This document shows positions 14,037 through 40,671 of a stretch of DNA of 64,000 nucleotides, piece after piece. This DNA is from a virus. The notes under the pieces were generated by a model that ran no database searches, was not told the origin of the DNA, and saw only the letters and a program-made list of their open reading frames with translations. Position 1 is the first letter of the stretch. Every line of letters starts with the position of its first letter. Where the stretch lies: IMG/VR virus record IMGVR_UViG_3300035310_000070, one strand, 5' to 3'. The position numbers and the translations under genes are program-made.

Positions 14037-14324
14037 TTGCTCGACCGATTCAAAGCCTTAGTGGACCGCATGCCATCCGACAAGACTCTTCAGGACCTGG
14101 TCAGAATGGCTCCTGTTCTGGAAAAGCTGCCCAGTGAAGCAACCCTTCAGGCCCTCATTCAATACCTGCCCCTCCTGGCAAAGTTGCCGGATTCGGCGGC
14201 ACTAAACCGGTTATCAGAGTACCTGCCCCTCTTGGAACGCTTGCCGGACCAAGCGACGCTTAAACAACTGCTGGATAAACTAGACACCCTGTCCCCCTTT
14301 CTTGCGGCATTGAAGGGAAAATAA
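14037..14324 (+). CDS. Amphipathic 19-aa repeat protein
   Basis: Four LPxxxxLxxLxxxLPxLxx repeats. Confidence 0.75.
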   Translation: MLDRFKALVDRMPSDKTLQDLVRMAPVLEKLPSEATLQALIQYLPLLAKLPDSAALNRLSEYLPLLERLPDQATLKQLLDKLDTLSPFLAALKGK

Positions 14325-14336
14325 TATACTGGCCAC

Positions 14337-14810
14337 ATGCCGCGCCCGACCTTCAGGCCGCCCATGCCGCCTCGAGTACCCGATAAGCTGCCCTTTGAGG
14401 AGAGCGTGGACCGGGCGCTGGACCGGGCCGCCGCAGCTTTAGAAGGAAGCAGATTCCTCCGCGTTGTACGCCGCATCGAGGACAAGCTGCCGGTCATTGG
14501 GCCCACCGAGATCCCGACCCCGCTGGGCACGGTGCGCGCTCCCCAGTTGGAGCCCCCGAGTTTAGAACCGCCACAGATGGACGACCGCCGCAAGCAGGCG
14601 GTCAAGGCCGCCGTGGCCCAGGACCTGGCGTTCATCGTGGGGTTCGTGCCGGTGGTAGGCGATGCCGTGGCGGACGTCGTTGAAGATGCCTACTTCCGCA
14701 CCATCCACGAGACTCTCACTCCGGAAGAGTTTGAGACCTATAAGAAGTTCGACGTGTACAGCCCTTCGACGGTGGCGGCCCTCAGGACTTTTTCCAAGCA
14801 CCGGAGATAA
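14337..14810 (+). CDS. Putative membrane-associated virion protein
   Basis: Pro-rich; hydrophobic segment LAFIVGFVPVVG. Confidence 0.7.
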   Translation: MPRPTFRPPMPPRVPDKLPFEESVDRALDRAAAALEGSRFLRVVRRIEDKLPVIGPTEIPTPLGTVRAPQLEPPSLEPPQMDDRRKQAVKAAVAQDLAFIVGFVPVVGDAVADVVEDAYFRTIHETLTPEEFETYKKFDVYSPSTVAALRTFSKHRR

Positions 14811-14812
14811 CG

Positions 14813-15253
14813 ATGCAGCGACCGTTGTTGCCAGACGCCCTAGCATTAACTTTCAATTCCATTATACTTGCCTTCGCTGAGGCGACAGGGATTGCTCCTG
14901 GTGCCGGAGAAGAGTGGGTCCAGGGGCTAGAAGACCATGTGAGGCGCAATGGCCTGTTTTCCAAGTTCTCCGTTTTGTACGCACCAATTCAACCTCCAAG
15001 CTTCTTCTGGCGATATTCGTGCGACAATTGTCGGGCATGGCAAGAACCGAACGGATGCAAGTGGGTCGAAGGGTGGATAGCGGCCGGGGGCTGGTGCGGG
15101 ATTTTTATGCCAAAAGAAGGGGATCCCCCATTCACCTGGCCGGCCAAGTTTCTCCAGGATATCCCGCGGTGGCTGGCCGAAGCGCCCGAGGCTTTCCGGA
15201 ATTGGCTTGACGAAGAACAGCCGCCTAAGGAACTCTGGATGCTTGGAGGGTAA
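14813..15253 (+). CDS. Protein with HiPIP-like four-Cys domain
   Basis: CDNC...C KWVEGWIAAGGWC matches the HiPIP CxxC...CxxVxGxIxxxGWC pattern. Confidence 0.6.
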   Translation: MQRPLLPDALALTFNSIILAFAEATGIAPGAGEEWVQGLEDHVRRNGLFSKFSVLYAPIQPPSFFWRYSCDNCRAWQEPNGCKWVEGWIAAGGWCGIFMPKEGDPPFTWPAKFLQDIPRWLAEAPEAFRNWLDEEQPPKELWMLGG

Positions 15254-15255
15254 AC

Positions 15256-15564
15256 ATGGCTGGCAATATAGGACCACCACCGCTCTTCGGGGCGCCATGG
15301 GAGAGGGAGGATGCGGAGGCTGAGGAACGCATTCAGGCAGGAGAACGGCGCCTCTCCGACCGAGATAGCTTCTTTGTCGGCATGAACCGCAACGGGATAG
15401 ATTGGGCCGCAAAACAAATCTCTGAATTGACGGGCATGGATAGTCAAACCGCCGGAAGTTTCGCCACTGCAATGTCAGTTATGGAACATCGTCAGCAGAC
15501 CCGAGTGGCCAACGACATTTACGATTACCTAAGGCGAATAGGGCAGTTCACCAAAGCAAGGTAA
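15256..15564 (+). CDS. Hypothetical protein
   Basis: GGAGG RBS. Confidence 0.7.
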   Translation: MAGNIGPPPLFGAPWEREDAEAEERIQAGERRLSDRDSFFVGMNRNGIDWAAKQISELTGMDSQTAGSFATAMSVMEHRQQTRVANDIYDYLRRIGQFTKAR

Positions 15565-15567
15565 GCC

Positions 15568-15819
15568 ATGCCTAACCGCGAAAGAATCGACCCCCTTGAA
15601 GCTAAGCTGTTCCGCCTGTTTAAGGTGGAAGCAGCCAAGGAACAGGCGATGGTCGCCCGCATCATAGAGGAGGGGGCAGTTCCAAGAGACCTCATGCGGC
15701 CCCCTGGCAAGGAAGCCGCCTGCGCTGTTCTGGCAATCATGGTCCGGGCTTTCCGCCCTCCGTTCAAGCTGCAAGATGGACTATTAGGCCGAGCAGAATA
15801 TTGGACCATTGAGGGGTAG
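15568..15819 (+). CDS. Hypothetical protein
   Basis: Operon ORF. Confidence 0.65.
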   Translation: MPNRERIDPLEAKLFRLFKVEAAKEQAMVARIIEEGAVPRDLMRPPGKEAACAVLAIMVRAFRPPFKLQDGLLGRAEYWTIEG

Positions 15820-16079
15820 TGATGCGCGTCGTCGTCGCCGCAGTCCCCTTCGGCAACCTGGACTCAATCCCCATCCGCGCCAAGCTGGAGAAAGCTTTGA
15901 AACAGGCCGCGGTCCCTTACGAGGTGACCCAGACGGCACTACTTCTGGACCCCGGGGCCCAAGTCCAGGCGTTCGCCAGGCGAAAGGCACCATACCTTTA
16001 CTTCCTGGTGGAAGAGCCTGACCTAGGCCGGGCCAGAAGCGCCATTGCCCCGGTTAGCCCGCACTCATTGGAGGAGTAA
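15819..16079 (+). CDS. Hypothetical protein
   Basis: Operon ORF. Confidence 0.65.
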   Translation: MMRVVVAAVPFGNLDSIPIRAKLEKALKQAAVPYEVTQTALLLDPGAQVQAFARRKAPYLYFLVEEPDLGRARSAIAPVSPHSLEE

Positions 16080-16082
16080 GTC

Positions 16083-16514
16083 ATGACACTAAGATTGCCC
16101 CCCCTTCTAGGGCTTCCGTGGGAGCGCCGGGCCAATGGTGATGGCTCCGGACTGCTGGCGCCCCTTGCTCTGACTGGCCTGACCAAGCTTCAAGGCCAAC
16201 CGTTCCAGTTTGGGTGGGGGGCCCGGAACACCGGGGGTTCTCCCGGGACTGTCGAACTAAATGTGGGCGCTCCCGCCTACCTCCGCAGCGGCCCCCTGGT
16301 GGTCAACCCCGGTCAGGACGTGCCCCTGGCTCTGGTATGGAACACCGGGTCAGTGGTGCCGGGGACCTACACGGTCACCATTCAGATCAACGAACTCACT
16401 CCCCAGGGGGTCTTTGCCAGGAACCTGGGGACCGATTCCTTTCCGCTGACCATTAGCTCCCCCGCTCCCGCGCCGGCCGCATTGTCCGTACTCGGCAGCC
16501 CGTCTGTTTCGTAA
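16083..16514 (+). CDS. Ig-like (CARDB-like) putative structural protein
   Basis: VNPGQDV...WNTG...GTYTVTI; ends LSVLGSPSVS. Confidence 0.7.
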   Translation: MTLRLPPLLGLPWERRANGDGSGLLAPLALTGLTKLQGQPFQFGWGARNTGGSPGTVELNVGAPAYLRSGPLVVNPGQDVPLALVWNTGSVVPGTYTVTIQINELTPQGVFARNLGTDSFPLTISSPAPAPAALSVLGSPSVS

Positions 16515-16525
16515 GGAGGAGCACC

Positions 16526-16783
16526 ATGACCCAGCAGTCCTCGTCCCCACTGGTCCAGGGCGCTGACGCGCTTGACGCTGCCGAAAGCAGGGTCGAGGAG
16601 ACTCTGAAACGAAGTATTCCTGATGTGGCTGGCTTGCTCCGAAGGATCGCCCTTGCTCTACCGGGTGGAGGAGTTCCTGGGGCTCCGCAACCAGAGGTAC
16701 CCGCCCCGGGTGTGCCGGTCCCGGGTGCCCGCGCTCCCCAGCCAGCCGTGCTGTCCGTGCTCGGCAGCCCAACTGTTTCGTAG
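16526..16783 (+). CDS. Pro-rich putative structural protein
   Basis: AAGGAGG RBS; ends LSVLGSPTVS. Confidence 0.7.
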   Translation: MTQQSSSPLVQGADALDAAESRVEETLKRSIPDVAGLLRRIALALPGGGVPGAPQPEVPAPGVPVPGARAPQPAVLSVLGSPTVS

Positions 16784-16789
16784 GTCGCA

Positions 16790-17458
16790 ATGGTTCGTCA
16801 GATATTCGGGGCTCTAACACCGGACCTTCCGATACGCGACGGCTTTCCACCGCATATCGACTCAAGGCTCTTGCCCAATAAGTTTCAGAATCTTCTGGCT
16901 GACTATGGCGGCACGCTGCCCATTCTCATATCGAAGGGCGACGACCTCACAGTCAGGGTCACGTTCGAAACCAAGGGGCCTCCTTTTATTTGCAAGGTCG
17001 GGGTGGGCCTTAATCTCACAACGGATGTCCGGAGGCTTCGCCCGGACGTCAACGTTGCCGTATGGCTGAGCGATACCAAGATCATCGCTCCTTCTTTGAC
17101 CTGGGCAAAACAAGAGGTCATTCTTAAAGGCAAGCTTATTTTTGAAGGAGAGCAGGAGCGCGATACAGTCGATGTATTAAAGGCTCTCGAGGTGCCTTTC
17201 CGCGACTTGGATATCGGTGGTGAGGATATGCTGCTGGCCGACTGGGACCGGGATGTTTACCGCGTTGGCGAGCGGCCTTTGCCGCCCATCCAAGGTCTAC
17301 CACGGTTGGGGGCCTATGGCGAAGGCCTACCCCCTTTAAGAGATATGCCGCCCATCCAAGGCCTACCACGGTTGGGGGCCTATGGCGAAGGCCTACCCCC
17401 TTTAAGAGATATGCCGCCCATCCAAGGTCTACCACGGTTGGGGGCCTACGGAGAGTAA
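16790..17458 (+). CDS. Beta-rich putative structural protein with C-terminal 22-aa repeats
   Basis: PPIQGLPRLGAYGEGLPPLRDM repeats. Confidence 0.75.
   Translation: MVRQIFGALTPDLPIRDGFPPHIDSRLLPNKFQNLLADYGGTLPILISKGDDLTVRVTFETKGPPFICKVGVGLNLTTDVRRLRPDVNVAVWLSDTKIIAPSLTWAKQEVILKGKLIFEGEQERDTVDVLKALEVPFRDLDIGGEDMLLADWDRDVYRVGERPLPPIQGLPRLGAYGEGLPPLRDMPPIQGLPRLGAYGEGLPPLRDMPPIQGLPRLGAYGE
17280..17458 (+). repeat. 66-bp tandem repeat, about 2.7 copies
   Basis: Copies start at 17280, 17346 and 17412 and are nearly identical. Confidence 0.95.
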
Positions 17459-17461
17459 GCT

Positions 17462-17902
17462 ATGTCGCATTGGGCACAAGTTCAGGTTGATACCACCGGA
17501 AGGGTCTGGGTCGTAATTGATTGGGAAGAGGGTCAGGGCGTAGTGAACGACACCGCCCGGCCCTTCGATATTTACATGGACCTGGAGATAACCCACAGCC
17601 GCAGGCTTTTGTCAGACCAGTCGGTTGTACGCACATTGCCCGGCACCAACCGGTTCACCACAGAACGAGACCGGGCGCTCATTATATTCACACATGCTCC
17701 CATCGGCACCGTTCAGCCAGGCACTGTCATGGGCATACCGGCTACCGTCGTTGTGGACCGACGGGCCTTCCCAAATGAGGGCTTAGAGGTGAAGGCGATT
17801 GTACGCCTTGTTGAAAATCCCCAGGCCTCGGAGCCAGGAGATGTTGGTCGAGTTATTCTCGAGCACAGACAGGATGGCGTGCTGAGAGTGAACTCAATCT
17901 GA
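17462..17902 (+). CDS. Beta-rich hypothetical structural protein
   Basis: GGAG RBS; 146 aa. Confidence 0.7.
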   Translation: MSHWAQVQVDTTGRVWVVIDWEEGQGVVNDTARPFDIYMDLEITHSRRLLSDQSVVRTLPGTNRFTTERDRALIIFTHAPIGTVQPGTVMGIPATVVVDRRAFPNEGLEVKAIVRLVENPQASEPGDVGRVILEHRQDGVLRVNSI

Positions 17903-17935: not shown

Positions 17936-18430
17936 GTGGCAATGCTGGAACTGTTAGGAGCATGGAGTCTCTTTTGCTGGAGGTTTTCTATTAATGAACG
18001 CCAAGAAAACTTTCGACTCGCCCGAGGAGCATCCGACAGTTCGGGAAAGCCTCTCCTTGTGGTGGGAAAACCACAAGAATGGGACTTTTCGATAGTGGGG
18101 CATCCTTGTGGCGATGTTACGCTCGACATTGACCCAAGAGTGCTTGAGCAGTGCCGTACGTCAGGCATTGTTGGCGACGTGACTGCGATACCGTTCCCAG
18201 ATAAGTATTTCGGGGCAGTCTATGTGAGTCACGTTCTCGAACATCTAGACTCCCAGGTGGCTTTCAACCAAGCTATGGCTGAAATTCACCGAGTCGCTGA
18301 TGCTGTATTTGTTTGCTGGCCTCGTTGGTGGAGCCCGGGTGCCTGGTTACACCCAGACCATAAATTGCTGCTGGGTGATAACAACGGAACTGTCACATTC
18401 ATTTCTCAAATCCGTGCATCAACCACTTGA
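17936..18430 (+). CDS. SAM-dependent methyltransferase
   Basis: DIDP...GDVTAIPFPDKYFGAVYVSHVLEHL. Confidence 0.85.
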   Translation: MAMLELLGAWSLFCWRFSINERQENFRLARGASDSSGKPLLVVGKPQEWDFSIVGHPCGDVTLDIDPRVLEQCRTSGIVGDVTAIPFPDKYFGAVYVSHVLEHLDSQVAFNQAMAEIHRVADAVFVCWPRWWSPGAWLHPDHKLLLGDNNGTVTFISQIRASTT

Positions 18431-18497: not shown

Positions 18498-18890
18498 ATG
18501 GCCCACGAAGGCACACCCCATCGAGTCTTGGACAACATTCTCGACGGCGCAGCGAACGGCGCCAAGGGCCTGGTGTCAGGTCTTTCTGGCGCCCTTACGT
18601 CCGCCGGTGAAGGCATTCAAACAGGACTCGATGCGCCATGGAAGTCCATCGGCGGGCCGGACCAGCCGCTCAGGATCGTCGACCGCTTACTCGATGGAGC
18701 CGTTCACGCCGGTGTCAACGCGGTCAACCAGGGCCTCATCGAGACGGTGAAACAGGGTGGAGACGCAATACAGAACGCCTTGGACCATCCTGTAGAAAAC
18801 TTCGGCATTCCTCCCTCTATGGGAGAGGGCATGCGAAACCCTTCTCTTATGGGCAAGGGTTTCGGCCGCATTAGGCTGCCGAGGCTTTAG
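18498..18890 (+). CDS. Gly/Ala-rich amphipathic two-repeat protein
   Basis: PHRVLDNILDG...GLDAP and PLRIVDRLLDG...ALDHP. Confidence 0.75.
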   Translation: MAHEGTPHRVLDNILDGAANGAKGLVSGLSGALTSAGEGIQTGLDAPWKSIGGPDQPLRIVDRLLDGAVHAGVNAVNQGLIETVKQGGDAIQNALDHPVENFGIPPSMGEGMRNPSLMGKGFGRIRLPRL

Positions 18891-18902
18891 GGCTGAACGA
18901 AA

Positions 18903-19250
18903 ATGGCGGTAACTCAGTTGCCGAACGGAGGGCAGGGTAACATGACCACACGAGCGTTTCCGCAGCTACCGGATATTAAGGCGCTTTTGACCGGGCCGGC
19001 TCAGGCCCTGGCCAATATCGAAAGAGGTTTCCCCATAGGCCCCCCTCCGGTCTCGATCGGTCAGACGTTAAGCCAGATAGCAACCAGCCTCCCGGTCCCC
19101 GGTGCGCTTGGGGCACCTGCGGTGCCCGACCTCTTGCCACCGGCGATTCGCTCAACCCTTCAAGCCGCACTGACGCCTCAGGCGCCGCGGCCTTCTGGGA
19201 ACGGGCGGATCCAACCCGCTGTCGCTTACGCCCGCACCGGAATCAGTTAA
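18903..19250 (+). CDS. Pro-rich putative virion protein
   Basis: Operon ORF. Confidence 0.65.
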   Translation: MAVTQLPNGGQGNMTTRAFPQLPDIKALLTGPAQALANIERGFPIGPPPVSIGQTLSQIATSLPVPGALGAPAVPDLLPPAIRSTLQAALTPQAPRPSGNGRIQPAVAYARTGIS

Positions 19251-19288: not shown

Positions 19289-20062
19289 ATGGTACTCGCA
19301 CAGGTTGCGGCTGAGTCTCGCGTCGAGAGTGTGCTAGGCGCCTACGTTAGGGGACAGCTACCCGGACAGCCTTATACGAGGGACAGCGTCTCCATCGGGG
19401 GCAAGCCTATCAGCGCCTTAGACCCCGACCCAAACGACTTCGAGATATTCCGTGCAGAGCTGGCGGTGTTGAGCAAACGCCAGCGCAATCCAATGGTGGC
19501 GGATATCATCGCCCGTAACGCCCCCCGGCTATGGGATGCGGTGCGGATGGTCAACTCCAACACCAAGCTGGGCTTTGGCGGAGCCAGCGCCCGTGGCGGC
19601 CGGCTACTCTTCAATCCCTTGGAGCCGCGAGACCTGGGACGCGCCGGCGGCTTCCCGGGCACTGCCCCTCCAGATAGCTGGCTCCAGGTCCCCGCCACGG
19701 TCGGGGCAGCCCGGTTGTGGCCCCCCACTTCCGGCACCATCGACATGACGATCAGCTCGTTGCCGGTCCTGAGCCACGTGTACTTTGGCTTCGTGAACCC
19801 GGTGGCGAACCCCAAGGTGAATAATATTCAGTTGGTCCTGGACGCCGACCCGTGGCCTGAGGAGATCCTGGACTGGGATTGGCGGGAAGGGTATGGGGAC
19901 AACGAGACGCCGGTCTACGAGCTAAAGAACCCCTGGGTGATCCGGCCCGGCGCTTCGTACCGAATCAGCGTGCGCAACTACATCACCGGCGAGGACCGGC
20001 TAACGCCTATCGGCTTCAGCGTGAAGAGAGCCCTGGACATCATCGCATCCCTGGCAACATAA
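19289..20062 (+). CDS. Candidate major capsid protein (jelly-roll-like)
   Basis: Strong RBS, C-biased codons, beta-rich C-half (VYELKNPWVIRPGASYRISVRN); fold assignment is inference. Confidence 0.5.
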   Translation: MVLAQVAAESRVESVLGAYVRGQLPGQPYTRDSVSIGGKPISALDPDPNDFEIFRAELAVLSKRQRNPMVADIIARNAPRLWDAVRMVNSNTKLGFGGASARGGRLLFNPLEPRDLGRAGGFPGTAPPDSWLQVPATVGAARLWPPTSGTIDMTISSLPVLSHVYFGFVNPVANPKVNNIQLVLDADPWPEEILDWDWREGYGDNETPVYELKNPWVIRPGASYRISVRNYITGEDRLTPIGFSVKRALDIIASLAT

Positions 20063-20074: not shown

Positions 20075-20347
20075 ATGAATACACGGATGCGCTCGGTGCG
20101 GGGCCCGGCCGTTTACGCGGCCGGTGGTTTCCTTGTCACCCTAGGAGATATTGAGCGGATCTCAGTTTCGTCGGGCCGGTTGGTTTCAGCGGCAACTGTT
20201 TCGTCATCGCCCATGGTGGCCCAGGTTGTAAACGCTTCAGGCAACGTTGCCACCGTGATCCTGCGGGACCAGCGGTCTGGCGGGCTTGAACCTACTGCCG
20301 GCGACTTCAGCGGCCTACACGTGAACGTGCTCTACGAGGGCGTGTAA
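20075..20347 (+). CDS. Capsid decoration/cement-like small protein
   Basis: GPAVYAAGG...EPTAGDFSG...VLYEG resembles small proteins found after capsid genes. Confidence 0.5.
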   Translation: MNTRMRSVRGPAVYAAGGFLVTLGDIERISVSSGRLVSAATVSSSPMVAQVVNASGNVATVILRDQRSGGLEPTAGDFSGLHVNVLYEGV

Positions 20348-20394: not shown

Positions 20395-21006
20395 ATGGCA
20401 GTCGAACTCCTGACGGAGACGCCGCGTCTCCTGCAAGATGGTCACTACGTCGTCTTTGAAGGCGGTTGGCCAACCTCAACCGGCAAAGATAATAAATGGT
20501 TCCGGGTCGAGCGAGCCCAGCAGATCAAGCTGGACATCCCACGCATCGTCTCCAGCGGCGGCAGCATCGACCTGGACTTCTCGGCCCCCTCGGGCGGCGG
20601 GATCGGTGACCTAAACCTTTCCCTTATCCCCACCGGCGGCGACACTCTCTACGAGCTCCTTATCGGCATGAAGGGCAACGTCTTCATGTACCCGATGTAC
20701 AACAACTCCTTCTTCCAGAAGCTCGAGGTGACGAACGTCGCCCCCGACACCGGAGACCGCAACCTCCGGTACCTCGGCTTCTTCGATGAGAACGACTCTC
20801 CGTTTGAAGCGCCAAGGCTTCGGGAGCATGTTGTTAAAGACCAGCAGCCCCCGGTCCTTCGCCTGTACAACGACCAGGTCGTTGATGAGCCCCTGGTAAT
20901 TCGCTTCATCGTCAACCGGTGCAGGCTGGTCCCAGCCAGTGCGCCCTCGGAGGACCTCCGCCGGGTAGCCCGCATCGCTAAATACCATTCCTGGTTCGTG
21001 TACTAA
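20395..21006 (+). CDS. Second candidate capsid (beta-rich) protein
   Basis: SPFEAPRL...PVLRLYN...LVIRFIVN; high-expression codon style. Confidence 0.45.
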   Translation: MAVELLTETPRLLQDGHYVVFEGGWPTSTGKDNKWFRVERAQQIKLDIPRIVSSGGSIDLDFSAPSGGGIGDLNLSLIPTGGDTLYELLIGMKGNVFMYPMYNNSFFQKLEVTNVAPDTGDRNLRYLGFFDENDSPFEAPRLREHVVKDQQPPVLRLYNDQVVDEPLVIRFIVNRCRLVPASAPSEDLRRVARIAKYHSWFVY

Positions 21007-21017: not shown

Positions 21018-21365
21018 ATGCCAGTAACGCGAGAAGACTATAAACAGCGGGCCAGGCGGCTGGTCTGCGCCTCTGGGGATACCCGATTTTTCCTCGTTCC
21101 CAGAAACCAGGTCGCACATGCAAGCCATATCCAGGTCGACACCTCAGACCTCAGCGGCGTAGCGGGGATAGTCAGCGTCCAAATCCGCGACAGCTTCTCC
21201 CCGATATCCGGCAGCAGCGGAACGGTCATCCGAAAAGAGCTTGCCGTCCGCGGCGGAGATGTGATCGCCGAAGACCTTGGGGCCGGCTACCAGCTCATCG
21301 GGGGGATCGATGTGCGCGTCGACACCTCCGGGCCCATAGTTTCTCTCAGCGCCGTTTTCCAGTAG
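21018..21365 (+). CDS. Small beta-sandwich virion protein
   Basis: Val/Ser/Gly-rich beta pattern. Confidence 0.55.
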   Translation: MPVTREDYKQRARRLVCASGDTRFFLVPRNQVAHASHIQVDTSDLSGVAGIVSVQIRDSFSPISGSSGTVIRKELAVRGGDVIAEDLGAGYQLIGGIDVRVDTSGPIVSLSAVFQ

Positions 21366-24096: not shown

Positions 24097-24166
24097 TTTG
24101 TCCCTGCCGTCTGGAACCGGTTCTCCGTGTGTTCCAGCACGGTGAATCGGTGAAGGACGGTTTCTC

Positions 24167-25263: not shown

Positions 25264-25274
25264 GCGGTGCCGCG

Positions 25275-32108: not shown

Positions 32109-34363
32109 AAGCACTCATCGTTTCTACGCAGATTTATCAGGTTCCCCCAGTCAGCTATGGGGGCCTTGAGGTTTGCGTTTTCAACCTGGCCGAGGCCCTA
32201 GGCCAGATGGGGCACGATATCTTCGTGCTGTGCCCCGAGGGTTCTAAAGGACAGCACTTCACGGTCTGCTCCGCCGGCCCGGCGGGCCTGCACAACCCGG
32301 AGGAGCAGGCCTACAATGCGCTCAAGCCCTCCTTCAAGGACTTTGACGTTATCCACGATCATTCCTGGGCAGGATTTCCATACCTCGCCAAGCGGGAGTG
32401 GCCGAAGCTAAAGCTGCTCCATACGATACATAGCCAAAGGCCCTACAACACGAAACCCGTAGACAAGCCCTGTTTCGTCGCGGCCTCCCAGGCCCAGGCG
32501 GACTACCTGAAACGTGAGGTAGGCTTCGATTGTAAGGTGGTGCACCACGGCATTGATCTCTCACTGTACCCGCTATGCACGGCGAAAGAGGACTTCCTGC
32601 TGTACCTCGCCCGGGTTCAAGATGAAAAGGGCGCGCTGGAGTTTGTTCAGCTTTGCAAATCAGTCGGCATGAAAGGGATGCTGGCCGGCGAGGACATATT
32701 CGTTCCGGACCCGCTCGGCTACCCACGAAGGGTGATGGAGGCCTGTGAACAAAGCGGAGGCCTGGTGCGCTACCTGGGGAGGGTCCCCTTCGATTACAAG
32801 CTTGAGCTCCTGCAGACGGCCCGGTGCCTGGTCGCGCCGCTCAAGCCGCCTTATTGTCTCCCTCCCGGAGAAATTGTACTGACGAACCCCTCGGCTAAAC
32901 CTATTGAAGATGTTCGGCCTGCCGATAGGGTATTCGGCGCGGATGGCGTCTGGCATTTAGTTACAGGTATAAATAAACGTCAATTCGATGGGGAACTGGT
33001 CGTACTATACCCCCACTTGTCGCAAGCTGTACGCCTAACGCCGGAACATCGCGTCCTTGCGGTCCGGCCCAGAGCTTGTGGTAACAACGCTAATTCACCA
33101 TGCAGGCCTAATTCATGTAGGTGTCTTCTAAGGGCAAAACGTGCCACTACCTACAAGACTGCCATGGAGATGGACCGCCAGGGGATAGCCCCAAGCATCA
33201 TCAGGAGACAATTAGAAGTTCCTGAGACTACCCTTTACTATTGGCGTAAAAAGAGGACCAGACCACAAGCTTGGGATAAGCCCTTCTATCAATCCTACAA
33301 CCCCGAATGGATAGCTGCTAAAGACCTCCGAGCAGGAGACTTTTTGGCCGTCCCGACCCCTAAGGAAACTGTGGAGTATGCAGGCCCCCCACCACGTCTT
33401 CTTGGGTATTACGTGGCCGAGGGGTTTACCAATAACGATAATCTGCGGCTCGCCTTTGGCACACATGAGACCGCCCTGATAAACGACGCCCGTCATCAAA
33501 TTGAGCAATGGAAGGGGAAAGCGCCTGCGGTGTATCCGACCAAGACCGCAACGTTGGTGGTCTGGTATAGCACCGCAGATGTCTCTACATTCAGAGAGTG
33601 GTGTGGAGTTGGCGCCCACAATAAAAAGGTCCCTTTGCCAATCTTACAAGGGTCCCAAGAGGTGATGCAGGACTTCCTTAAGGGATTGTGGGCGGGGGAC
33701 GGATGTGTCTCCCACCGCAACGGGTATCAAGTTCTTTGCTACGCCACTGTATCACCAACTTTGGCAAGGCAGCTACTACTTCTCCTAGCCCGAGTCGGTG
33801 TGATAGCTAAACTAGGTATCGTTAGCAGTCCTCGGGCCTTCAATAAAGGCAAGCCTGTCTATCAACTCACTGTGTCCGGGCAGCATATGATCATGCTTTC
33901 CTCGTTATTAGACTACCCAATCAACGAGAAAATCAAGCGAAGCCGCGCTCACGCTTCATCTTTCATCCATGAAGGATTTCTTTACTACCCAATTAGACAT
34001 ATTGCACGCCAAGCGTACAAAGGCCCCGTCCACGACTTGCAGGTGGAAAGTGCAGAAAGCTTTCTAGCAGGGAACATCATGGTTCACAATTGCGAGATTT
34101 TTGGTTTAAGCACCGTTGAGGCCCTTTCTTGCGGGACCCCGGTTCTGTCTACGGACCGGGGCGCAGCCCGGGAGCTCCTGGTCCACGGCACGACCGGCGC
34201 CATTGCTGAGGATGTCGCCTGTCTTGAAACAAACCTCGAAATCGCCTTACAATGTCAGCCGAAGGCCTGCCGGCGCCGGGCCGAGGAATTCTCCAGGGAG
34301 AAAATGGCGACCGCGTACCTGGACCTCTACCGCCGTATAATTGAGGATAACGAGCAATGGTGA
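32105..34363 (+). CDS. GT4 glycosyltransferase containing an intein
   Basis: DVIHDHS, ARVQDEKG, CEIFGLSTVEALSCGTPV. Confidence 0.9.
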   Translation: MKALIVSTQIYQVPPVSYGGLEVCVFNLAEALGQMGHDIFVLCPEGSKGQHFTVCSAGPAGLHNPEEQAYNALKPSFKDFDVIHDHSWAGFPYLAKREWPKLKLLHTIHSQRPYNTKPVDKPCFVAASQAQADYLKREVGFDCKVVHHGIDLSLYPLCTAKEDFLLYLARVQDEKGALEFVQLCKSVGMKGMLAGEDIFVPDPLGYPRRVMEACEQSGGLVRYLGRVPFDYKLELLQTARCLVAPLKPPYCLPPGEIVLTNPSAKPIEDVRPADRVFGADGVWHLVTGINKRQFDGELVVLYPHLSQAVRLTPEHRVLAVRPRACGNNANSPCRPNSCRCLLRAKRATTYKTAMEMDRQGIAPSIIRRQLEVPETTLYYWRKKRTRPQAWDKPFYQSYNPEWIAAKDLRAGDFLAVPTPKETVEYAGPPPRLLGYYVAEGFTNNDNLRLAFGTHETALINDARHQIEQWKGKAPAVYPTKTATLVVWYSTADVSTFREWCGVGAHNKKVPLPILQGSQEVMQDFLKGLWAGDGCVSHRNGYQVLCYATVSPTLARQLLLLLARVGVIAKLGIVSSPRAFNKGKPVYQLTVSGQHMIMLSSLLDYPINEKIKRSRAHASSFIHEGFLYYPIRHIARQAYKGPVHDLQVESAESFLAGNIMVHNCEIFGLSTVEALSCGTPVLSTDRGAARELLVHGTTGAIAEDVACLETNLEIALQCQPKACRRRAEEFSREKMATAYLDLYRRIIEDNEQW
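32855..34090 (+). mobile_element. Intein, 412 aa, with LAGLIDADG endonuclease
   Basis: CLPPGE...TPEH...LGYYVAEG...LWAGDG...MVHN then Cys(+1). Confidence 0.93.
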
Positions 34364-34986
34364 ACCGACGCGCACTCGAAAGCCTGCGGGACCTTCCTTT
34401 TGACGAGGTGAGCTGGCGGAAGGTGCTGCTCGAGGTCCTGCCAGCCCAGGCCCAGACCATGGTGCTGATCGAGCAACACCTCGCTGCCATAGAGCTATTA
34501 CTCCGGGCTGGCGCTGCGCCATCTACCGTACTCCAACTTGGCGCCCTCCCCAACGCCGCGCCGGTGGTGACGAGCGAAGTCTTAGTTAAGGCGGTGGTCA
34601 GCACTCCGTCCGTGGCCGTCGGCGCCGAGAGCGAATTCGACGTGGAGCTCACTGACCTGTGGGGCAAGCCCATTGACTTCTCCCATCTAAGCATCACCGA
34701 AGTGGACATTGCGGCCCCGCAGCTGGTCAATGCTGACGACGTGCGATTGAGGATCTTCAGGACGGGCCGGCGACGTGTCCCCCAGGACCTGGTGGCCGAG
34801 TTTACCGGCACTTCAGTAGTTGCCGGCACGTGGCAAGCTTCGTTTTCTAACCGCCGCATTGAGTACAGCGACTCGGACGGCGAAGACGAACTGCACCTCG
34901 CTGTTCGCAACTCAAGCGGGAACTCCGGCCCCAGCACCTTCGACCTCCGATTCTTCGCGCGGGCCTTCCCCAAGACCAGGGGGTAA
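34357..34986 (+). CDS. Putative spike-base/penton-like structural protein
   Basis: Helical N-terminus and beta-rich C-half; precedes the spike. Confidence 0.55.
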   Translation: MVNRRALESLRDLPFDEVSWRKVLLEVLPAQAQTMVLIEQHLAAIELLLRAGAAPSTVLQLGALPNAAPVVTSEVLVKAVVSTPSVAVGAESEFDVELTDLWGKPIDFSHLSITEVDIAAPQLVNADDVRLRIFRTGRRRVPQDLVAEFTGTSVVAGTWQASFSNRRIEYSDSDGEDELHLAVRNSSGNSGPSTFDLRFFARAFPKTRG

Positions 34987-34989
34987 TCC

Positions 34990-36795
34990 ATGCCCATCAT
35001 GGAGCAGACAACCCCAGCCGAGTCGGGGGTGGCTTTGGGACGGGCGCAGACCTGGACCGCCAACCAGACGTTCAGCAGTACTGCGGACTTCCTCTTTTCT
35101 CCGGTGGCGCCGGGCACGGTGACATGGGCCGGCGATGCTGAAAGGTACGTGAGTTGGGAAAACGATGCGGTCGCCACCTACGATGCGCTACGTCTTCGTG
35201 GTGCTAGCGGCCTTGTCGCCCGGTTTGTGCAAGACGCACGCCTCCATATCTGGGACACAACGGCTTACGGTTCTGAGCCGCCCCCGAACCCCGCCGATGG
35301 CGACACATTCGCGTTCGCGCTCTACGGCGATATGTACGGCGGCGACGTCAATACGTTCAGCGAAAACACGCCCGGCGTTCAACGCTCAGCGGGGACTGCG
35401 ACCGCTGGCACCGCCGGCTTGACCCTGATTGACTCAGCCGCGGATTTCGTCACCGCCGGCGTGGTCGCAGGTGACATTGTGCAGAGCAGGACTTCGGGCG
35501 CTTATGGGCGGGTCGTAACCCGGGACTCTGCTACACAGTTGACCCTCGCCGCCTCGACAAACTTGGCAGGCCGTGTTTTGTCATTCAGTGTTGGTAATTC
35601 GTACAGAGTTCGAGCGCCGGGTAATAATCCGGGGTTCGTCCTGGGCCGCCGCTGGGGCGCAGAAATGCGCACCGTTCAGGCCGTGACGGTCCTCTCGCAT
35701 ATTCAAGGTCCTTTCGACAACTTCGGTGGCGCGCAGATCGTACTCTACAACGACGTTAACGGCGGAGGCGGCGATGCTGGCTCTCTGGTCTTGTCGGCCT
35801 TTGGCCAGGGCGGTGCAGGTAGTAACGAAATCCGCCTGGCGACCCGCAGCGCCGCCGACACGCTCGCCACACGGGTCATTGTTTCTTCTGGTGCAATGGC
35901 TTTCCAGGAAGCCACCACCATCAGCGTCACAACCGGCATCCTCGCCCTGGATGGTGCCTCTACTTCCGCAATCCGGCTGAACGAGGCCGGCATAAACGTA
36001 GATACGGCGATAGAGAGCGAGAATGTCACCACGCTGTTCATCGTTGACGCCACCTTGGACGTAGTCTCGATAGGCGGTGGCGTTGGTCTAGGAGGTGCGC
36101 TGCTGAGCTTGCAGTTCGGCGCCCAAGCCCGCACTTTTGCGACCTCCAGGGGCACTACTATTAACCACGTGGCCGACACCCAGACGGATAACGGCGGCGC
36201 CAGGACGATGGCCGTGGTTGCGGCGCAATTCTTCGGCATCCCCACCTGGACTAACGCCGCCAACGCCGTCACCGCCACCATTGGGGCCACCGTGTACATC
36301 AGCGGGGCGCCGGTCGCGGGCACCAACTGGACCAACACCGCGCCTGGCCCCTATGCCCTTTATGTGGCGGATGGCTCGTCGAGGTTCCAGGGCAACGTCT
36401 CGCTGTTCTCGACTTTGACCGCAGGGGCCGATGGCGTAGGAGCCTCTGGCGAGCAGCTTACGTCCGGCGGAGCTGGAGCTGAGGTCTCCTGGACGGCGGC
36501 GGCGTCGTTGCGCGAATACAAGCAGTTTACCGGCGAATATCTGCGCCCACAGGACGCCCTAGACCTGATACTTGGCACGGCAGTCCCGCTGTGGACGTAC
36601 AAGCCCGGTCGTGGGACCGGCGACCACCAGAAGATATACGCGGGGCCGGTGGCCGAAGAAGCACTATGGGCGATGCACCACGGCGGCAGGATTCTTGACC
36701 CCATCAGCACGTTTGGCTACACGATAGCCGCGTTCCAGGCGATGCAGGCGGAGATTGACCAGCTCAAGACCGAATTAGCAGGGCTACGGAGGTAA
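34990..36795 (+). CDS. Spike/fibre protein with peptidase S74 intramolecular chaperone
   Basis: Gly/Ala/Thr-rich beta body; S LREYK...W TYK...GPVAEE...coiled-coil end. Confidence 0.85.
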   Translation: MPIMEQTTPAESGVALGRAQTWTANQTFSSTADFLFSPVAPGTVTWAGDAERYVSWENDAVATYDALRLRGASGLVARFVQDARLHIWDTTAYGSEPPPNPADGDTFAFALYGDMYGGDVNTFSENTPGVQRSAGTATAGTAGLTLIDSAADFVTAGVVAGDIVQSRTSGAYGRVVTRDSATQLTLAASTNLAGRVLSFSVGNSYRVRAPGNNPGFVLGRRWGAEMRTVQAVTVLSHIQGPFDNFGGAQIVLYNDVNGGGGDAGSLVLSAFGQGGAGSNEIRLATRSAADTLATRVIVSSGAMAFQEATTISVTTGILALDGASTSAIRLNEAGINVDTAIESENVTTLFIVDATLDVVSIGGGVGLGGALLSLQFGAQARTFATSRGTTINHVADTQTDNGGARTMAVVAAQFFGIPTWTNAANAVTATIGATVYISGAPVAGTNWTNTAPGPYALYVADGSSRFQGNVSLFSTLTAGADGVGASGEQLTSGGAGAEVSWTAAASLREYKQFTGEYLRPQDALDLILGTAVPLWTYKPGRGTGDHQKIYAGPVAEEALWAMHHGGRILDPISTFGYTIAAFQAMQAEIDQLKTELAGLRR

Positions 36796-38051: not shown

Positions 38052-39365
38052 ATGGCAACATTACTTGTAGAGATGAAACCCGGTGTGCCTGTCAGACAAG
38101 TCGAGGCCGGCTTGCTCCGGGCAGAGGCCCGACTGGTTAAACCCTACTCGAATATCTCTCGATTCATGGGGACCAGCCTCTGGCTCTTTGACTCTCCGTT
38201 GGGCACCCCATTGACCTCTCTGGCGCGTGCGCCGGGTGTGGATTACCTGGAGCCCGACGAGGAGCACATCTATGTCTTGCCCGGCAATGGGGTGCAGCCA
38301 TTAGGACCTTTTGGCACTCGTTTTCTCTCTCTGGGCGCGCCTGCGGACCCCCACGCCAGCACCCTTCCCTCGATCATACAAATGATTGGAGCGGACCCCG
38401 CCCTGACGCGGTCGCGGGGTGGTGAAGGGGTAATTATTCTGGTCGTGGATTCCGGGATCGACGGGAACCGCGTTCCGGCCTCTCAGCGAGCTGGCGGCTG
38501 GACCGACGACCCTGACGGCAATCCCTGGACGGACCGGACCGGTCACGGAACCATGGTGGGGTTGATCGCCCTGGCGACCGCGCCCAATGCGAAACTCTTC
38601 TCGGTCAAAATGAAGGCCGGCCCCAACGGCGGCCTCATGAAGGAATCGGTGATGTCCGCCATAGATGACCTGATCCCTTTAATCGAAGCCAACCCGGACC
38701 TGAAGCTGGTGATGAATAACTCCTGGGGCACTGAGGGTTGCGGGAGTAACCCATATTGGTGAGAGATGATCCCAGCCCGCCTTGTGCGGAGCATAGACCA
38801 AAAGAATGTCATCGCCATGGCGTTCGCCGCTGGAAACAGCAATCAGGACTGCGGTGGTGCATCCTCGATTCTCTGCATCAACTCCAATGAGGGCGGAATT
38901 ACAGCCGCCGCTCTCGACCGCAATGGTAACCCTCAGGCCTACTCCTCCAGGGGGCCCGGCCAGTGTTCCCTACTGCACCCTTTTATCGGCGCGCCTACGT
39001 TCGGTGTACTTCCCTACGGAGCCGGTTACGTTGACATGGGCGAGGTGGGCGGGGGCACCAGCAGCGCTACGCCGCAACTTTCGGGGGCCCTGGCGATTCT
39101 TAAAGGCGAAATCCCGAAGGCCAACAACACTTTACTTCGCACCGCGCTGGCGGCCGGCGCCAGAAAGACCAACTTTCCCAGCGGGTTCCTGCCATTCGCG
39201 CCGGCCACAGGTTTCGGGATGCTCCAGGTAGACCGTGCCCTGGATTGGTTGCCTTCGGCCCGAGTGCATCCATTTTACCCGGTCATTTCATCGCGATTTG
39301 CGGCGCCTTTAAGGGTACCAGCCACGCGGGTAATAGCTGGCGTGGAACCAAGCCGTCGCGCTTGA
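38052..39365 (+). CDS. Subtilisin-like S8 protease interrupted by one in-frame TGA (38760-38762)
   Basis: VVDSG (D), HGTMV (H), AAGNS (N), GGTSSATP (S); both ORFs share one frame. Confidence 0.85.
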
Positions 39366-39414
39366 TAGGCGCCTTGCCGCCACGTGTGGCGGCCTAAAAT
39401 GGAGCACAGGGACG

Positions 39415-39858
39415 ATGAAGCGCAAACTGCTCAATAGTCTCCGTTGGTTGAGGGACCTGGCATTGCTTCGCCTGTTCTTGAACGCGACGCAGCACGACGG
39501 CTTCTGGCTCGGTCAACAGCTATTCCAGGTTGGGAACGGGGCCAATCCGACCTACACGCTGCGGGACGGACGATACTGGACCGTACCGTTTGAGAAGTGG
39601 CAGAGGATTGCGAAGTACAATTGGCGGCTGAAATACTATGTGGACCGCTGGGACTGCGACAACTTCGCCGACCTATTCCGGGTGCTGGTCAGCGTGGCTT
39701 TCGGACTGAACACGGTCGGGACGGTCCTGAACCAGCAGCACGCCTGGAACGTCGTGGTGGCTGAGGATGGGCTGCATTGGTTCGAGCCACAGACCGGGGT
39801 ATGGGTAACGGACCTGACAGGGATTTACAGCCTAGAGGGGGCGAGGGTGGAGATATGA
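39415..39858 (+). CDS. Papain/transglutaminase-like cysteine peptidase
   Basis: DCDNFA...HAWN...FEPQT. Confidence 0.75.
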   Translation: MKRKLLNSLRWLRDLALLRLFLNATQHDGFWLGQQLFQVGNGANPTYTLRDGRYWTVPFEKWQRIAKYNWRLKYYVDRWDCDNFADLFRVLVSVAFGLNTVGTVLNQQHAWNVVVAEDGLHWFEPQTGVWVTDLTGIYSLEGARVEI

Positions 39859-39995
39859 AGATTCCCAAAATATTCAAGGTCCGGGTTTCCGAGAAGCCCC
39901 TGTGCGGGACCCGGGTCAAAGAGGCCATGGAGACCCTAAAGGCAGTGACGAACGGCAAAGGGAAGCTCAATGCCAGTGTCAAGCCCACTCGCTAA
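39855..39995 (+). CDS. Small basic protein
   Basis: ATGA overlap; GGAG RBS. Confidence 0.5.
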   Translation: MKIPKIFKVRVSEKPLCGTRVKEAMETLKAVTNGKGKLNASVKPTR

Positions 39996-40140
39996 GCTCA
40001 TTATTCAGGGAATATTGAGCTTGGGCCTTCTGGGGGCTGGGCTATTTGTGCTGGTCACTATGGATTTGAAGGCCAATCCAGAGCTAGCGGTATCGGCGGG
40101 CGGTTGGATCGCACTCCCGGTTGGCTACTGGATGAAGTGA
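39970..40140 (+). CDS. 56-aa two-TM holin-like protein (not in the ORF track)
   Basis: MPVSSPLAKLIIQGILSLGLLGAGLFVLV...AGGWIALPVGYWMK. Confidence 0.65.
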   Translation: MPVSSPLAKLIIQGILSLGLLGAGLFVLVTMDLKANPELAVSAGGWIALPVGYWMK

Positions 40141-40141
40141 A

Positions 40142-40393
40142 ATGACAGTTGCCGCGATACGCTCGCTTCGTCCGGCTTTGGATAAGCAAGAGCCTCTGAC
40201 CTGGTTGCCGCTGAAAGATGGGCAGCGATGGAGCGCTAGCTTTGTTTGCTCCAACGGACACGACGGCACACTTCTTGACCACGCTATCGCGCCTGACGGC
40301 GCGGTACACCCAAGTGTGGTCTGCAACGGAATCCCCGGAGGAGAGGGTTGCACCTTCCACGATTACGTTGTACTTCAAGGCTGGACGGCCTGA
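40142..40393 (+). CDS. Cys/His metal-binding phage protein
   Basis: CSNGH...VHPSVVC...CTFH...W. Confidence 0.7.
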   Translation: MTVAAIRSLRPALDKQEPLTWLPLKDGQRWSASFVCSNGHDGTLLDHAIAPDGAVHPSVVCNGIPGGEGCTFHDYVVLQGWTA

Positions 40394-40410
40394 GCGGGGG
40401 TTTATAGTCG

Positions 40411-40671
40411 ATGCCAAAGTACGGGGTGACGCTGAAATTACCTGGCGGCGGCTTCGCCAGGATTTGCGGCTCTAAGCCCATGGTGGCCTGCCGGGCTTGC
40501 GAAGCGGCCGTCTCTGCCTACCTTTGCGACTACCCGGTCTCCCAGGGCCGGACCTGCGACATGCCCCTGTGCGGCGGTTGCCGGGTTCCCCAGAGTCCGG
40601 GCCGGGACTTTTGCCCCCGGCATGGCCAGCAGACCCTAAAATTGGGCGCTACAGCGGGCCCAGCCCTCTAA
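40411..40671 (+). CDS. Cys-rich Zn-finger protein
   Basis: CxxC...CD...CD..LC..C...DFCPRH. Confidence 0.75.
   Translation: MPKYGVTLKLPGGGFARICGSKPMVACRACEAAVSAYLCDYPVSQGRTCDMPLCGGCRVPQSPGRDFCPRHGQQTLKLGATAGPAL

Follow-up and report, generated by a model that had tools for sequence, protein, structure and literature searches.

The gene block at positions 14037–40671 is best explained, tentatively, as the virion-building module of an undescribed and probably tailless family of dsDNA bacterial viruses, with genomes of 58–74 kb and neither tailed-phage machinery nor a known packaging motor. The block is set in a mobile element of about 69 kb from groundwater. The window, that is, the whole stretch of DNA analysed, comprises 64,000 of the 68,570 bp of the contig, and the remaining 4.57 kb lie outside it.

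Genes of the + strand from 7163 to 44772, a range that covers the block, are tightly packed, with gaps of mostly 0–70 nt and frequent GGAGG-type ribosome sites, and the unbroken late operon described in a previous, sequence-only reading of this DNA was thus borne out. The element carries phage-type replication genes (integrase, primase, D5 helicase, RecT, a clamp-like protein and HNH/LAGLIDADG endonucleases), and this set shows that its predicted manner of replication is that of a phage. The GGAGG sites, RecT and the clamp-like gene indicate a bacterial host. Operon synteny was also observed on two contigs binned as Chloroflexota/Dehalococcoidia; metagenomic binning being the only basis, the hosts are probably Chloroflexota bacteria. 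The features that frame the block are:

7450..8235, + strand: ParA/MinD-type ATPase with a deviant Walker A (KGGVGKT loop in its translation), heading the co-oriented operon
8642..14032, + strand: family-conserved lipid-synthesis module (Pfam hits, transmembrane segments, homologues in the relatives G001, G002 contig C48 and L010)
43252–44772, + strand: D5 helicase (Walker-A scan)
61740–63203, minus strand: Corndog-like AAA ATPase (Walker-A scan; 29% identity with Corndog gp96 across 95% of the protein)

The lipid-synthesis module encodes a polytopic membrane protein, a UbiA-type prenyltransferase, a type III PKS/FabH-like enzyme, a small acidic ACP-like ORF and an NAD_binding_4 reductase. Homologues of the ParA-type ATPase occupy the equivalent position in G001 (28% identity, E 9e-24) and in G002 contig C48 (30%, E 2e-34). 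Throughout the family (GC 43–59%), the operon runs from this ATPase through the lipid-synthesis set and several small proteins to a 257-aa and a 203-aa protein, after which come spike- or fibre-like proteins.

Search for tailed-phage hallmarks and a packaging motor

Pfam and PHROG families of terminase, portal, HK97-type capsid and tail proteins had no match among the window ORFs scanned, which were all those of at least 300 aa and, in the 14–22 kb region, the majority of the small ones. No FtsK/A32 ATPase was matched among the ORFs of at least 300 aa, and no ORF of tape-measure size is present in the window. The only P-loop proteins of the window were the D5 helicase and the AAA ATPase, both from a Walker-A scan, and the ParA-type loop at 7450–8235, recognised by eye. 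The absence of any recognised Caudoviricetes hallmark was therefore confirmed for the scanned ORFs by Pfam, PHROGs and the Walker-A scan, within the limits that very divergent hallmarks can escape HMM searches and that the searched window omits 4.57 kb of the contig.

The same absence is more telling in G001, a distant relative from IMG/VR (69,475 bp, 117-bp terminal repeat, CheckV 100%), because this is a complete terminal-repeat genome that retains the core genes and their order: nine genes are common to G001 and the window, among them those for lipid synthesis and for the two conserved proteins, and those of the operon are collinear. Neither a family match nor a fitting P-loop for a large terminase subunit was found in the scanned window ORFs, and a six-frame search of G001 revealed no Terminase_6N at E ≤ 0.01 and no TerL_ATPase at E ≤ 1. 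Phage_portal, Phage_capsid and FtsK were also without a six-frame match in G001 at E ≤ 1, and no terminase, portal or capsid PHROG matched any of its 10 largest proteins; portal matches were equally lacking in the window with Pfam and PHROGs. A packaging ATPase of the FtsK/HerA type was found neither in the window (Walker-A scan) nor in G001 (FtsK_SpoIIIE search), and the P-loop proteins of G001 are located in its replication region. Two close relatives extend 8.7–10 kb beyond the AAA gene, and this region, likely the counterpart of the 4.57 kb outside the window, contains no ORF above 320 aa except an IS transposase.

Two conserved proteins predicted to be jelly-roll-like sandwiches

The two proteins that the family conserves best are found on the same contigs, and their genes lie close together:

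19289..20062, + strand: conserved 257-aa protein, capsid-shell candidate 1, predicted N-terminal helical part and C-terminal jelly-roll-like sandwich
20075..20347, + strand: 90-aa product, judged beta-rich by eye, its gene lying between those of the conserved pair
20395..21006, + strand: conserved 203-aa protein, capsid-shell candidate 2, predicted single jelly-roll-like beta-sandwich

The two conserved products had been described as beta-rich, with which the AF2 models agree, and the AlphaFold and fold-search check run on them gave jelly-roll-like sandwiches in both cases; only these two proteins were folded. The 203-aa model is a confident fold (pLDDT 94, pTM 0.89), and values for the 257-aa model were pLDDT 69 and pTM 0.75. 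The 203-aa protein has 56 close and more than 20 distant homologues. The 257-aa protein has 31 close homologues (48–85% identity), and its family comprises 93 clusters among 1.84 billion representatives, each of about 200–265 aa; none of the 77 members tested had a PHROG match. Neither protein carries an N-terminal hydrophobic, signal-peptide-like segment or a membrane anchor. The place of the 90-aa gene is taken by two 89–90-aa paralogues in G001, which have no detectable sequence similarity to its product, and by a 306-aa ORF in G002 contig C48.

The top fold match of the 257-aa model was the SPV1 capsid chain 6oj0_T (Z 6.2, rmsd 5.7, 128 of 178 residues), tied with nucleoplasmin and nozzle domains; the SH1 capsid chain 6qt9_a aligned over 128 of 173 residues at Z 5.0, a score within noise. 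For the 203-aa model, Z did not exceed 5.6 in the VIA fold search, and the best Foldseek matches were GOLD domains, CCMV and BMV coat proteins, FMDV VP2 and polyhedrin (E about 2e-3, probability 0.98–1.0). The match lists of the two models also contain decoration, turret, nozzle and pilus proteins (T7 nozzle, HFTV1 turret, Ena pilus subunits), and jelly-roll sandwiches are common in such proteins too. Since the best Z values, 6.2 and 5.6, lie inside the noise band stated for the tool, they do not establish a role in the capsid or a relationship with Halopanivirales, and matches this generic do not establish one with SPV1 (shell proteins VP4/VP10) or PM2 either.

Other genes of the block

14037..17902, + strand: eleven small ORFs (83–222 aa), no PHROG or Pfam family
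17936..18430, + strand: small SAM-dependent methyltransferase (Pfam Methyltransf_11, E 3.9e-9)
18498..19250, + strand: two small proteins (130 and 115 aa) rich in Gly/Ala/Pro, directly upstream of the conserved pair
21018..21365, + strand: 115-aa protein, beta-rich by eye (BLASTP E 5e-4 to a 114-aa G001 protein at the equivalent position)
21371..21799, + strand: borderline phage-cement-like protein (Pfam Phage_cement_2, PF09956)
21800..22444, + strand: HNH endonuclease with seven N-terminal 15-aa repeats (Pfam HNH, E 4.5e-10; 45-nt repeat family)
22574..34363, + strand: sugar-nucleotide and glycosyltransferase cluster (Pfam and PHROG matches)
34357..34986, + strand: 209-aa protein upstream of the fibre-like gene, no Pfam or PHROG family match
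34990..36795, + strand: 601-aa protein rich in Gly/Ala/Thr, fibre- or spike-like, without a Pfam, PHROG or PDB match
38052..39365, + strand: subtilase-like protease in two ORFs split by one stop (Peptidase_S8 on the first half, E 7e-10; PHROG protease)
40411..40671, + strand: 86-aa Cys-rich protein, no hydrophobic 19-mer

Among the eleven small ORFs, the one starting at 14037 has a weak positional similarity to G001 (E 0.016), the product of 14813–15253 is Cys-rich and has a 43%-identical homologue in G002 contig C48, and that of 16790–17458 ends in 22-aa tandem repeats. Membrane-type proteins proved scarce in the 14–22 kb block: a hydrophobic, membrane-like segment is present in one of the 18 ORFs of 14037–21799 (a single segment, in 14337–14810). 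The proposal of a holin-like gene at 40411–40671 was rejected, the product being Cys-rich and without a hydrophobic segment.

A strong GGAGG site precedes 18498. For the ORF starting at 18903, a weak homologue was found at the equivalent position in G001 (E 0.005), and this G001 protein matches G002 contig C48 and L010. The 18903 product is the sole very basic one (pI 11.3) and is Pro/Ala-rich, not protamine-like; a small Arg/Lys-rich protein, as would suit a DNA-wrapping core, was not seen. The 115-aa product of 21018–21365 had no Pfam or PHROG family match. Cement-like proteins had been noticed in the block, and the product of 21371–21799 was upheld as a borderline case: it reaches Phage_cement_2 with 24.0 bits, exactly the curated cut-off of 24, gives weak PHROG matches to head-scaffold, virion-structural and decoration proteins (E 0.002–0.18), and has no homologue in G001 or G002 contig C48.

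The sugar cluster encodes an epimerase/dehydratase, an SDR, a C-methyltransferase, three GT4 glycosyltransferases, a methyltransferase and a cytidylyltransferase, and two of the three GT4 genes contain LAGLIDADG inteins. At the place equivalent to 34990–36795, G001 encodes two right-handed beta-helix proteins, of 680 aa (Pfam Beta_helix, 44 bits) and 721 aa (NosD, below cut-off). An S74 C-terminus had been suggested for the 601-aa protein; it found no sequence support, as the protein had no Pfam match at E ≤ 1 and no PDB sequence match, and its last 110 aa had no tblastn match in 50,697 phage records, which leaves a likeness seen by eye in that stretch. The element further encodes an Ig-repeat protein.

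Discussion

In the virus family that we tentatively favour, the two sandwich proteins would form a tailless, probably icosahedral shell, made either of two single jelly-roll subunits or of a major protein with a penton or decoration protein. Where it occurs, the cement-like protein may staple this shell, the glycan cluster within the module may decorate the shell or the spikes, and the beta-helix and fibre proteins would bind the host. The lipid genes could supply or remodel a membrane layer. In the weakest step, the shell would assemble around DNA that is already condensed, in line with a proposal made for SPV1, instead of a preformed head being filled by pumping; this step is suggested by the lack of a translocating ATPase.

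The sequence-only reading had proposed a tailless, probably lipid-containing virus. Its tailless part agrees with the absence of hallmarks from the window and from the complete G001, and with the jelly-roll-like candidates; its lipid part depends on the upstream lipid-synthesis genes only, and small membrane proteins are nearly absent. The presence of only one transmembrane-like protein in 14–22 kb, unlike the PRD1-, PM2- and SH1-type modules, counts against the favoured reading. The same reading had suggested two single jelly-roll capsid proteins as in Halopanivirales; the predicted sandwiches fit this suggestion, but their fold scores are in the noise and an A32/FtsK ATPase is absent. To our knowledge, such a packaging ATPase is present in all characterised jelly-roll dsDNA viruses of bacteria, and the lack of one of any known kind counts against a jelly-roll shell virus.

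Halopanivirales (Thermus phage P23-77, Haloarcula virus SH1, HCIV-1) are tailless viruses with an internal membrane and two single jelly-roll capsid proteins. The element resembles them in having two neighbouring conserved small proteins (about 200 and 260 aa) that are jelly-roll-like, at Z values within noise, with vertex-spike-like proteins downstream. It differs from them in that no FtsK/HerA ATPase lies beside the capsid candidates or elsewhere, small membrane proteins are almost absent and the genome is 2–4 times larger; no sequence similarity to them was found. We know of no recognisable packaging ATPase in SPV1 (Portogloboviridae), to which the 257-aa model has its top, though tied, structural match. 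SPV1 (ICTV profile PMC8459092) is an archaeal virus with a circular genome of 20 kb, a nucleoprotein coil and a lipid layer that is covered by a jelly-roll shell; in the element, by contrast, no DNA-condensing protein was identified and the host is bacterial. As for PM2 (Corticoviridae), the nearest named ESM Atlas clusters of the 203-aa protein carry the P2_N and P2_C families, at a score of 0.77 that is below the lead threshold of the tool. PM2 P2 is absent from the fold-match lists, and unlike the double jelly-roll capsid proteins of the PM2 and PRD1 types (P2 in PM2), the 203-aa model is one sandwich and the 257-aa model one sandwich plus helices; an A32-type ATPase is again missing.

It is unlikely that the element is a tailed phage (Caudoviricetes), with hallmarks too divergent for Pfam and PHROGs or situated in the 4.57 kb outside the window, and with jelly-roll proteins that belong to a decoration, a turret or the baseplate. 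Fold matches include the T7 nozzle and the HFTV1 turret and the ESM Atlas neighbours of the conserved proteins are mostly labelled Uroviricota, but these two best-conserved structural proteins are predicted not to have the HK97 fold. The Phage_cement_2 family is otherwise known from HK97-type capsids. The replication genes, the AAA ATPase among them, are similar to those of siphoviruses such as the Mycobacterium phage Corndog group, and tailed phages typically carry fibre and beta-helix spike proteins. Glycosyltransferase genes lie within the putative structural module, and virion glycosylation occurs in mycobacteriophages. Unlike in tailed phages, however, genes for an HK97 capsid, a portal, a terminase, a tape measure or a tail were not detectable in the window or G001, all window ORFs of at least 300 aa are otherwise assigned except two low-complexity coiled-coil proteins, and nothing of terminase size lies beyond the AAA gene in the relatives.

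A capsid-less integrative, plasmid-like element or a satellite is also improbable; the sandwich, Ig-repeat, spike, glycan and lipid genes of such an element would serve to alter the surface of the host cell, or the capsid would be that of a helper virus. The integrase, the ParA-type, partition-like ATPase and the P4-like D5 primase-helicase suit such an element, but at 58–74 kb it would far exceed known satellites, and no large ORF or P-loop protein of the window fits a conjugation ATPase. Cell-envelope-type enzymes fill about 18 kb of the operon by Pfam and PHROG assignment, and Ena pilus subunits and GOLD domains are among the fold matches, yet the conserved proteins have no signal-peptide-like N-terminus or membrane anchor. 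Packaging machinery is absent, as this explanation would have it; on the other side, a cement-like protein is encoded, G001 has terminal repeats and is called viral by IMG/VR, and the family occurs in a 0.1-µm fraction.

IME1 of Dehalococcoides is a hallmark-less, Chloroflexota-restricted, virus-like dsDNA element of 21–28 kb with an integrase, a pI-like ATPase, many small membrane or signal-peptide proteins and filamentous particles (bioRxiv 10.64898/2026.09.15.751708). The present element shares with it the lack of hallmarks, the integrase and the likely host phylum, but has a larger genome, few membrane proteins and no pI-like ATPase. A differently built virus (for example enveloped, pleomorphic or filamentous, with release by budding), with an envelope made by the lipid genes and sandwich proteins as nucleocapsid or spike parts, is very unlikely: the lipid-synthesis set conserved at the operon head, the lack of a packaging ATPase and the recent proposal of IME1 as a probably budding lineage of Dehalococcoidia (bioRxiv 10.64898/2026.09.15.751708) speak for it, but the pI/Zot-like ATPase and the many small membrane proteins of IME1 have no equivalent in this block, and jelly-roll sandwiches with a cement-like protein suit a shell better.

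Nearly all bacterial dsDNA viruses above 45 kb known to us are tailed, and few viruses of Chloroflexota are known. If the tailless family is real, a motor-less lineage of about 70 kb whose core combines a jelly-roll-like pair with spikes, glycan genes and a lipid pathway would widen the size range and assembly modes of tailless phages, and would be a second unconventional virus lineage for Chloroflexota after IME1. A bolder version is possible but doubtful, in which a realm-level new Chloroflexota lineage with a 58–74 kb genome, a shell of two small jelly-roll proteins and no packaging ATPase would use its own prenylated phenolic lipid and C-methyl sugar glycan pathway for a particle membrane and coat. 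Direct testing is feasible, since both conserved proteins are short, have good predicted models and occur in groundwater that can be sampled. All relatives from Hainich groundwater came from a size fraction that went through 0.2 µm and was retained at 0.1 µm (filtration scheme in PMC12960796).

Operon layout and search for hallmark genes

The gene run that the sequence-only reading had described as unbroken extends on the + strand from 7163 to 44772, with gaps of mostly 0-70 nt and GGAGG-type sites at many starts. Its claim that Caudoviricetes hallmarks are absent was also borne out: Pfam and/or PHROG scans, which covered every window ORF of at least 300 aa and most of the small ORFs at 14-22 kb and 34-40 kb, gave no match to terminase, portal, HK97-type capsid, tail or tape-measure families. 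A Walker-A scan of the six frames of the window identified only a D5 helicase and an AAA ATPase, and the 7450-8235 product carries the deviant KGGVGKT loop of ParA/MinD ATPases. Together, the Walker-A and family scans indicate that the window lacks both a terminase and a packaging ATPase of the FtsK/A32 type.

Much of 14037-40671, the span claimed as a morphogenesis operon, is filled by enzymes rather than structural genes:

17936-18430, small methyltransferase
21800-22444, HNH endonuclease
22574-34363, sugar-nucleotide/glycosyltransferase cluster (epimerase/dehydratase, SDR, C-methyltransferase, cytidylyltransferase and three GT4 genes)

The lipid genes assigned to this operon lie upstream of the span, at 8.6-14 kb. 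They are present, but of the 18 ORFs in 14037-21799 a single one has a transmembrane-like segment; as this block is nearly devoid of membrane proteins, the proposal of a lipid-containing particle is weakly based. The product of 21371-21799 remains a borderline cement-like protein, matching Pfam Phage_cement_2 at 24.0 bits, exactly at the cut-off, and PHROG head-scaffold and decoration families weakly. The 601-aa fibre-like protein (34990-36795) matched no Pfam family at E<=1 and no PDB sequence, and tblastn of its last 110 residues against phages was negative; the S74 call was therefore a by-eye resemblance. The product of 40411-40671, read as holin-like, is Cys-rich and has no hydrophobic segment, and is thus not a holin. 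Three 66-nt tandem copies, the first two 98% identical, were observed at 17280-17477; they encode a 22-aa repeat at the C-terminal end of the 16790-17458 protein, and the copies extend into the start of the next gene.

Replication genes

The 64,000-base window derives from a 68,570-bp metagenomic contig. Its GC content varies from 52 to 62%, it contains no tRNA genes, and megablast of 14037-38000 against 50,697 phage records returned no close relative. These genes mark the element clearly as mobile, with a replication part that resembles that of phages:

1880-2875, tyrosine integrase
42060-43307, DnaG-type primase
43252-44772, D5 helicase
52020-53195, minus strand, RecT
54706-55713, minus strand, clamp-like processivity factor (phrog_947)
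61740-63203, AAA ATPase, sharing 29% identity with Mycobacterium phage Corndog gp96 across 95% of its length
elsewhere in the window, a phrog_2045 protein and several HNH and LAGLIDADG endonucleases

Despite the clamp-like gene, no DNA polymerase was found among window ORFs of at least 300 aa, and the element may recruit the host replicase. The clamp-like gene holds a perfect 36-nt direct repeat, in two copies 39 nt apart (55311-55385). Two Pro/Ala/Glu-rich, coiled-coil-like proteins of 438 and 451 aa without family match are encoded at 539-1855 and 5615-6970 (minus strand); in the equivalent place, two relatives (G001 and G002c48) have a conserved 413- to 443-aa coiled-coil protein, divergent from the ParA gene.

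A complete relative and the probable host phylum

Alignment A4 led to a distant relative, G001 (IMGVR_UViG_3300014205_007777), of 69,475 bp and 43% GC, with a 117-bp direct terminal repeat and a CheckV completeness of 100%. G001 and the window have in common a ParA-type ATPase, a polytopic membrane protein, UbiA, a type III PKS, a small ACP-like ORF, a reductase, the families of the 19289 and 20395 products with 89- to 90-aa proteins between them, and the phrog_2045 protein. The operon gene order is identical in both; between the small flanking proteins there is weak similarity by position.

Six-frame searches of G001 with Terminase_6N, TerL_ATPase, Phage_portal, Phage_capsid and FtsK_SpoIIIE were negative, and its P-loop proteins lie in the replication region. 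None of its ten largest proteins matched a hallmark in PHROG or Pfam, and four could not be assigned. Those identified comprised a DNA methyltransferase, a transposase, a right-handed beta-helix protein and an 873-aa protein with Ig-like repeats, with weak matches to an anti-restriction/metallo-protease and a NosD-type beta-helix; PDB sequence searches with three large proteins lacking a family gave no match.

Two MAG contigs show the same core synteny, one of 43 kb from Chloroflexota and one of 35 kb from Dehalococcoidia. Of the four matches in genome collections, three are Chloroflexota; the other, a contig of 2.1 kb, was binned with Heimdallarchaeota.

Distribution of the two conserved proteins

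For the 19289 product (257 aa), 31 close homologues were found at 48-85% identity; all are metagenomic, and their contigs reach 73,578 and 57,847 bp. Searched with the family profile, 1.84 billion representatives yielded 93 clusters, nearly all of 200-265 aa. None of 77 diverse members matched a PHROG, and the family profile A2 retrieved nothing meaningful from PDB sequences, only a designed helical repeat. Searches with the 20395 product (203 aa) returned 56 close homologues and over 20 distant ones. Homologues of both occur on contigs of equal lengths, so the two genes travel together. Neither protein had a tblastn match in phages, nor did the 20395 protein in plasmids. In IMG/VR, only queries A4 and A7 reached a genome, G001 in both cases; searches with the 19289 protein, A1 and A3 yielded no locus or were too divergent. 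Paralogy of the two families found no support (hhalign probability 2%).

Direct BLASTP between the 14-22 kb structural block of the window (59% GC) and G001 (43% GC) recovered only these two proteins, and the strongest ribosome sites of the block precede their genes. The protein encoded between them is single in the window (90 aa) and duplicated in G001 (89 and 90 aa; 22339-22894). G002c48 has in its place a 306-aa ORF (17730-18650), which might be a fused triplicate.

Predicted folds

The sequence-only reading had proposed beta-rich capsid candidates, possibly single jelly-rolls as in Halopanivirales. AlphaFold predicted the 20395 product to be nearly all beta, a jelly-roll-like sandwich (pLDDT 94, pTM 0.89). 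Its top Foldseek matches were GOLD domains, bromovirus coat proteins, FMDV VP2 and polyhedrin (E about 2e-3, probability 0.98-1.0); VIA-align gave Z <=5.6, with alignments of about 120 residues, at high rmsd, to many classic single jelly-roll coat proteins. A sandwich was also predicted for the 19289 product, but in a weaker model (pLDDT 69, pTM 0.75), in which an N-terminal hairpin and three helices precede it. The best match was the SPV1 capsid chain 6oj0_T (Z 6.2, rmsd 5.7, 128/178 residues), followed lower by the SH1 capsid chain 6qt9_a (Z 5.0, 128/173 residues), and sandwiches from nucleoplasmin, the T7 nozzle and Ena pili score alongside these chains. All scores for both models fall within the band that the tool calls common. 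The predicted fold class of both proteins is a jelly-roll-like sandwich, not HK97, but these scores indicate no specific kinship.

Halopanivirales kinship was accordingly not upheld: the SH1 match lies in the common band and a packaging ATPase is missing. Two other leads were discarded. An HK97 reading of the 19289 model (hairpin, then long helices) is at odds with the all-beta sandwich of the remainder, and HK97 chains were absent from the fold lists; a PM2 P2 lead for the 20395 product had an ESM Atlas score of 0.77 only, without support in the fold lists.

The rest of the contig and the source of the samples

A metagenome scan with the AAA ATPase gave 17 loci, mostly from Hainich groundwater 0.1-µm fractions; one comprises 21 kb of the 73,578-bp relative. 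In this and a second relative, the sequence beyond the AAA gene (10 and 8.7 kb, respectively) is the likely counterpart of the 4.57 kb absent from the window. It contains no ORF above 320 aa except an IS transposase, and its largest conserved ORF (303 aa) matches a phage gene that carries an HNH endonuclease annotation. A hidden terminase-portal pair beyond the AAA gene is therefore unlikely, though such a pair might lie at the opposite side of the window. By the contig names of L014-L029, every Hainich relative came from '01um' samples, material that ran through a 0.2-µm filter and was then retained at 0.1 µm (PMC12960796). Free particles of 100-200 nm would fit this origin, as would very small cells.

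A putative virion module

The most economical reading is that the operon is the virion module of a virus, in view of the phage-type replication, the lack of a detectable conjugation ATPase, the spike/fibre-like proteins, the borderline cement protein, the terminal repeats of the relative, and recovery from the fraction passing 0.2 µm. As candidates for the shell, the two conserved sandwich proteins stand first; they have the strongest ribosome sites and are the only block proteins recovered by BLASTP between the window and G001. The position of the glycan cluster, after the shell candidates and before the fibre gene, suggests that the virion may be glycosylated.

Other readings appear less probable. 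The family lacks, at the HMM level, what defines Caudoviricetes, and a very divergent tailed phage is unlikely. That the element is capsid-less, or a satellite, and remodels the cell surface is likewise unlikely. A budding or filamentous virus is more doubtful still.

Membership in Halopanivirales or among double jelly-roll viruses is contradicted by the missing packaging ATPase. SPV1, which is not known to have a recognisable packaging ATPase, resembles the family in this lack of a motor, but the fold similarity is at noise level. Enclosure of the genome during assembly has reportedly been proposed for SPV1; by analogy, since there is no translocating ATPase, the genome of the virus would be enclosed during assembly and not pumped in. 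No DNA-condensing protein was found in the window element. IME1 of Dehalococcoides, a recently proposed hallmark-less virus lineage from the same phylum (bioRxiv 10.64898/2026.09.15.751708), differs from the window family in size, ATPase and membrane proteins. No description of the family was found in the literature.

Inteins and an IS-like unit

LAGLIDADG inteins split two of the three GT4 genes of the 22574-34363 cluster. A 223-aa G001 protein (24565-25236), Cys/His peptidase-like by eye, has a 607-aa homologue on G002 contig C48 (L011:14215-16038), the middle of which matches the intein part of the window GT4 gene 29308-31674 (34% identity over 436 aa). Judged from this alignment, it would be a third intein-bearing gene type of the family, within the structural block. 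A transposase and DNA-methyltransferase pair occupies window 45946-49734. In the 73.6-kb relative a related pair (53-56% identity; L014:3678-6404) is placed differently, beyond the AAA gene, and this IS-like unit thus moves within the family.
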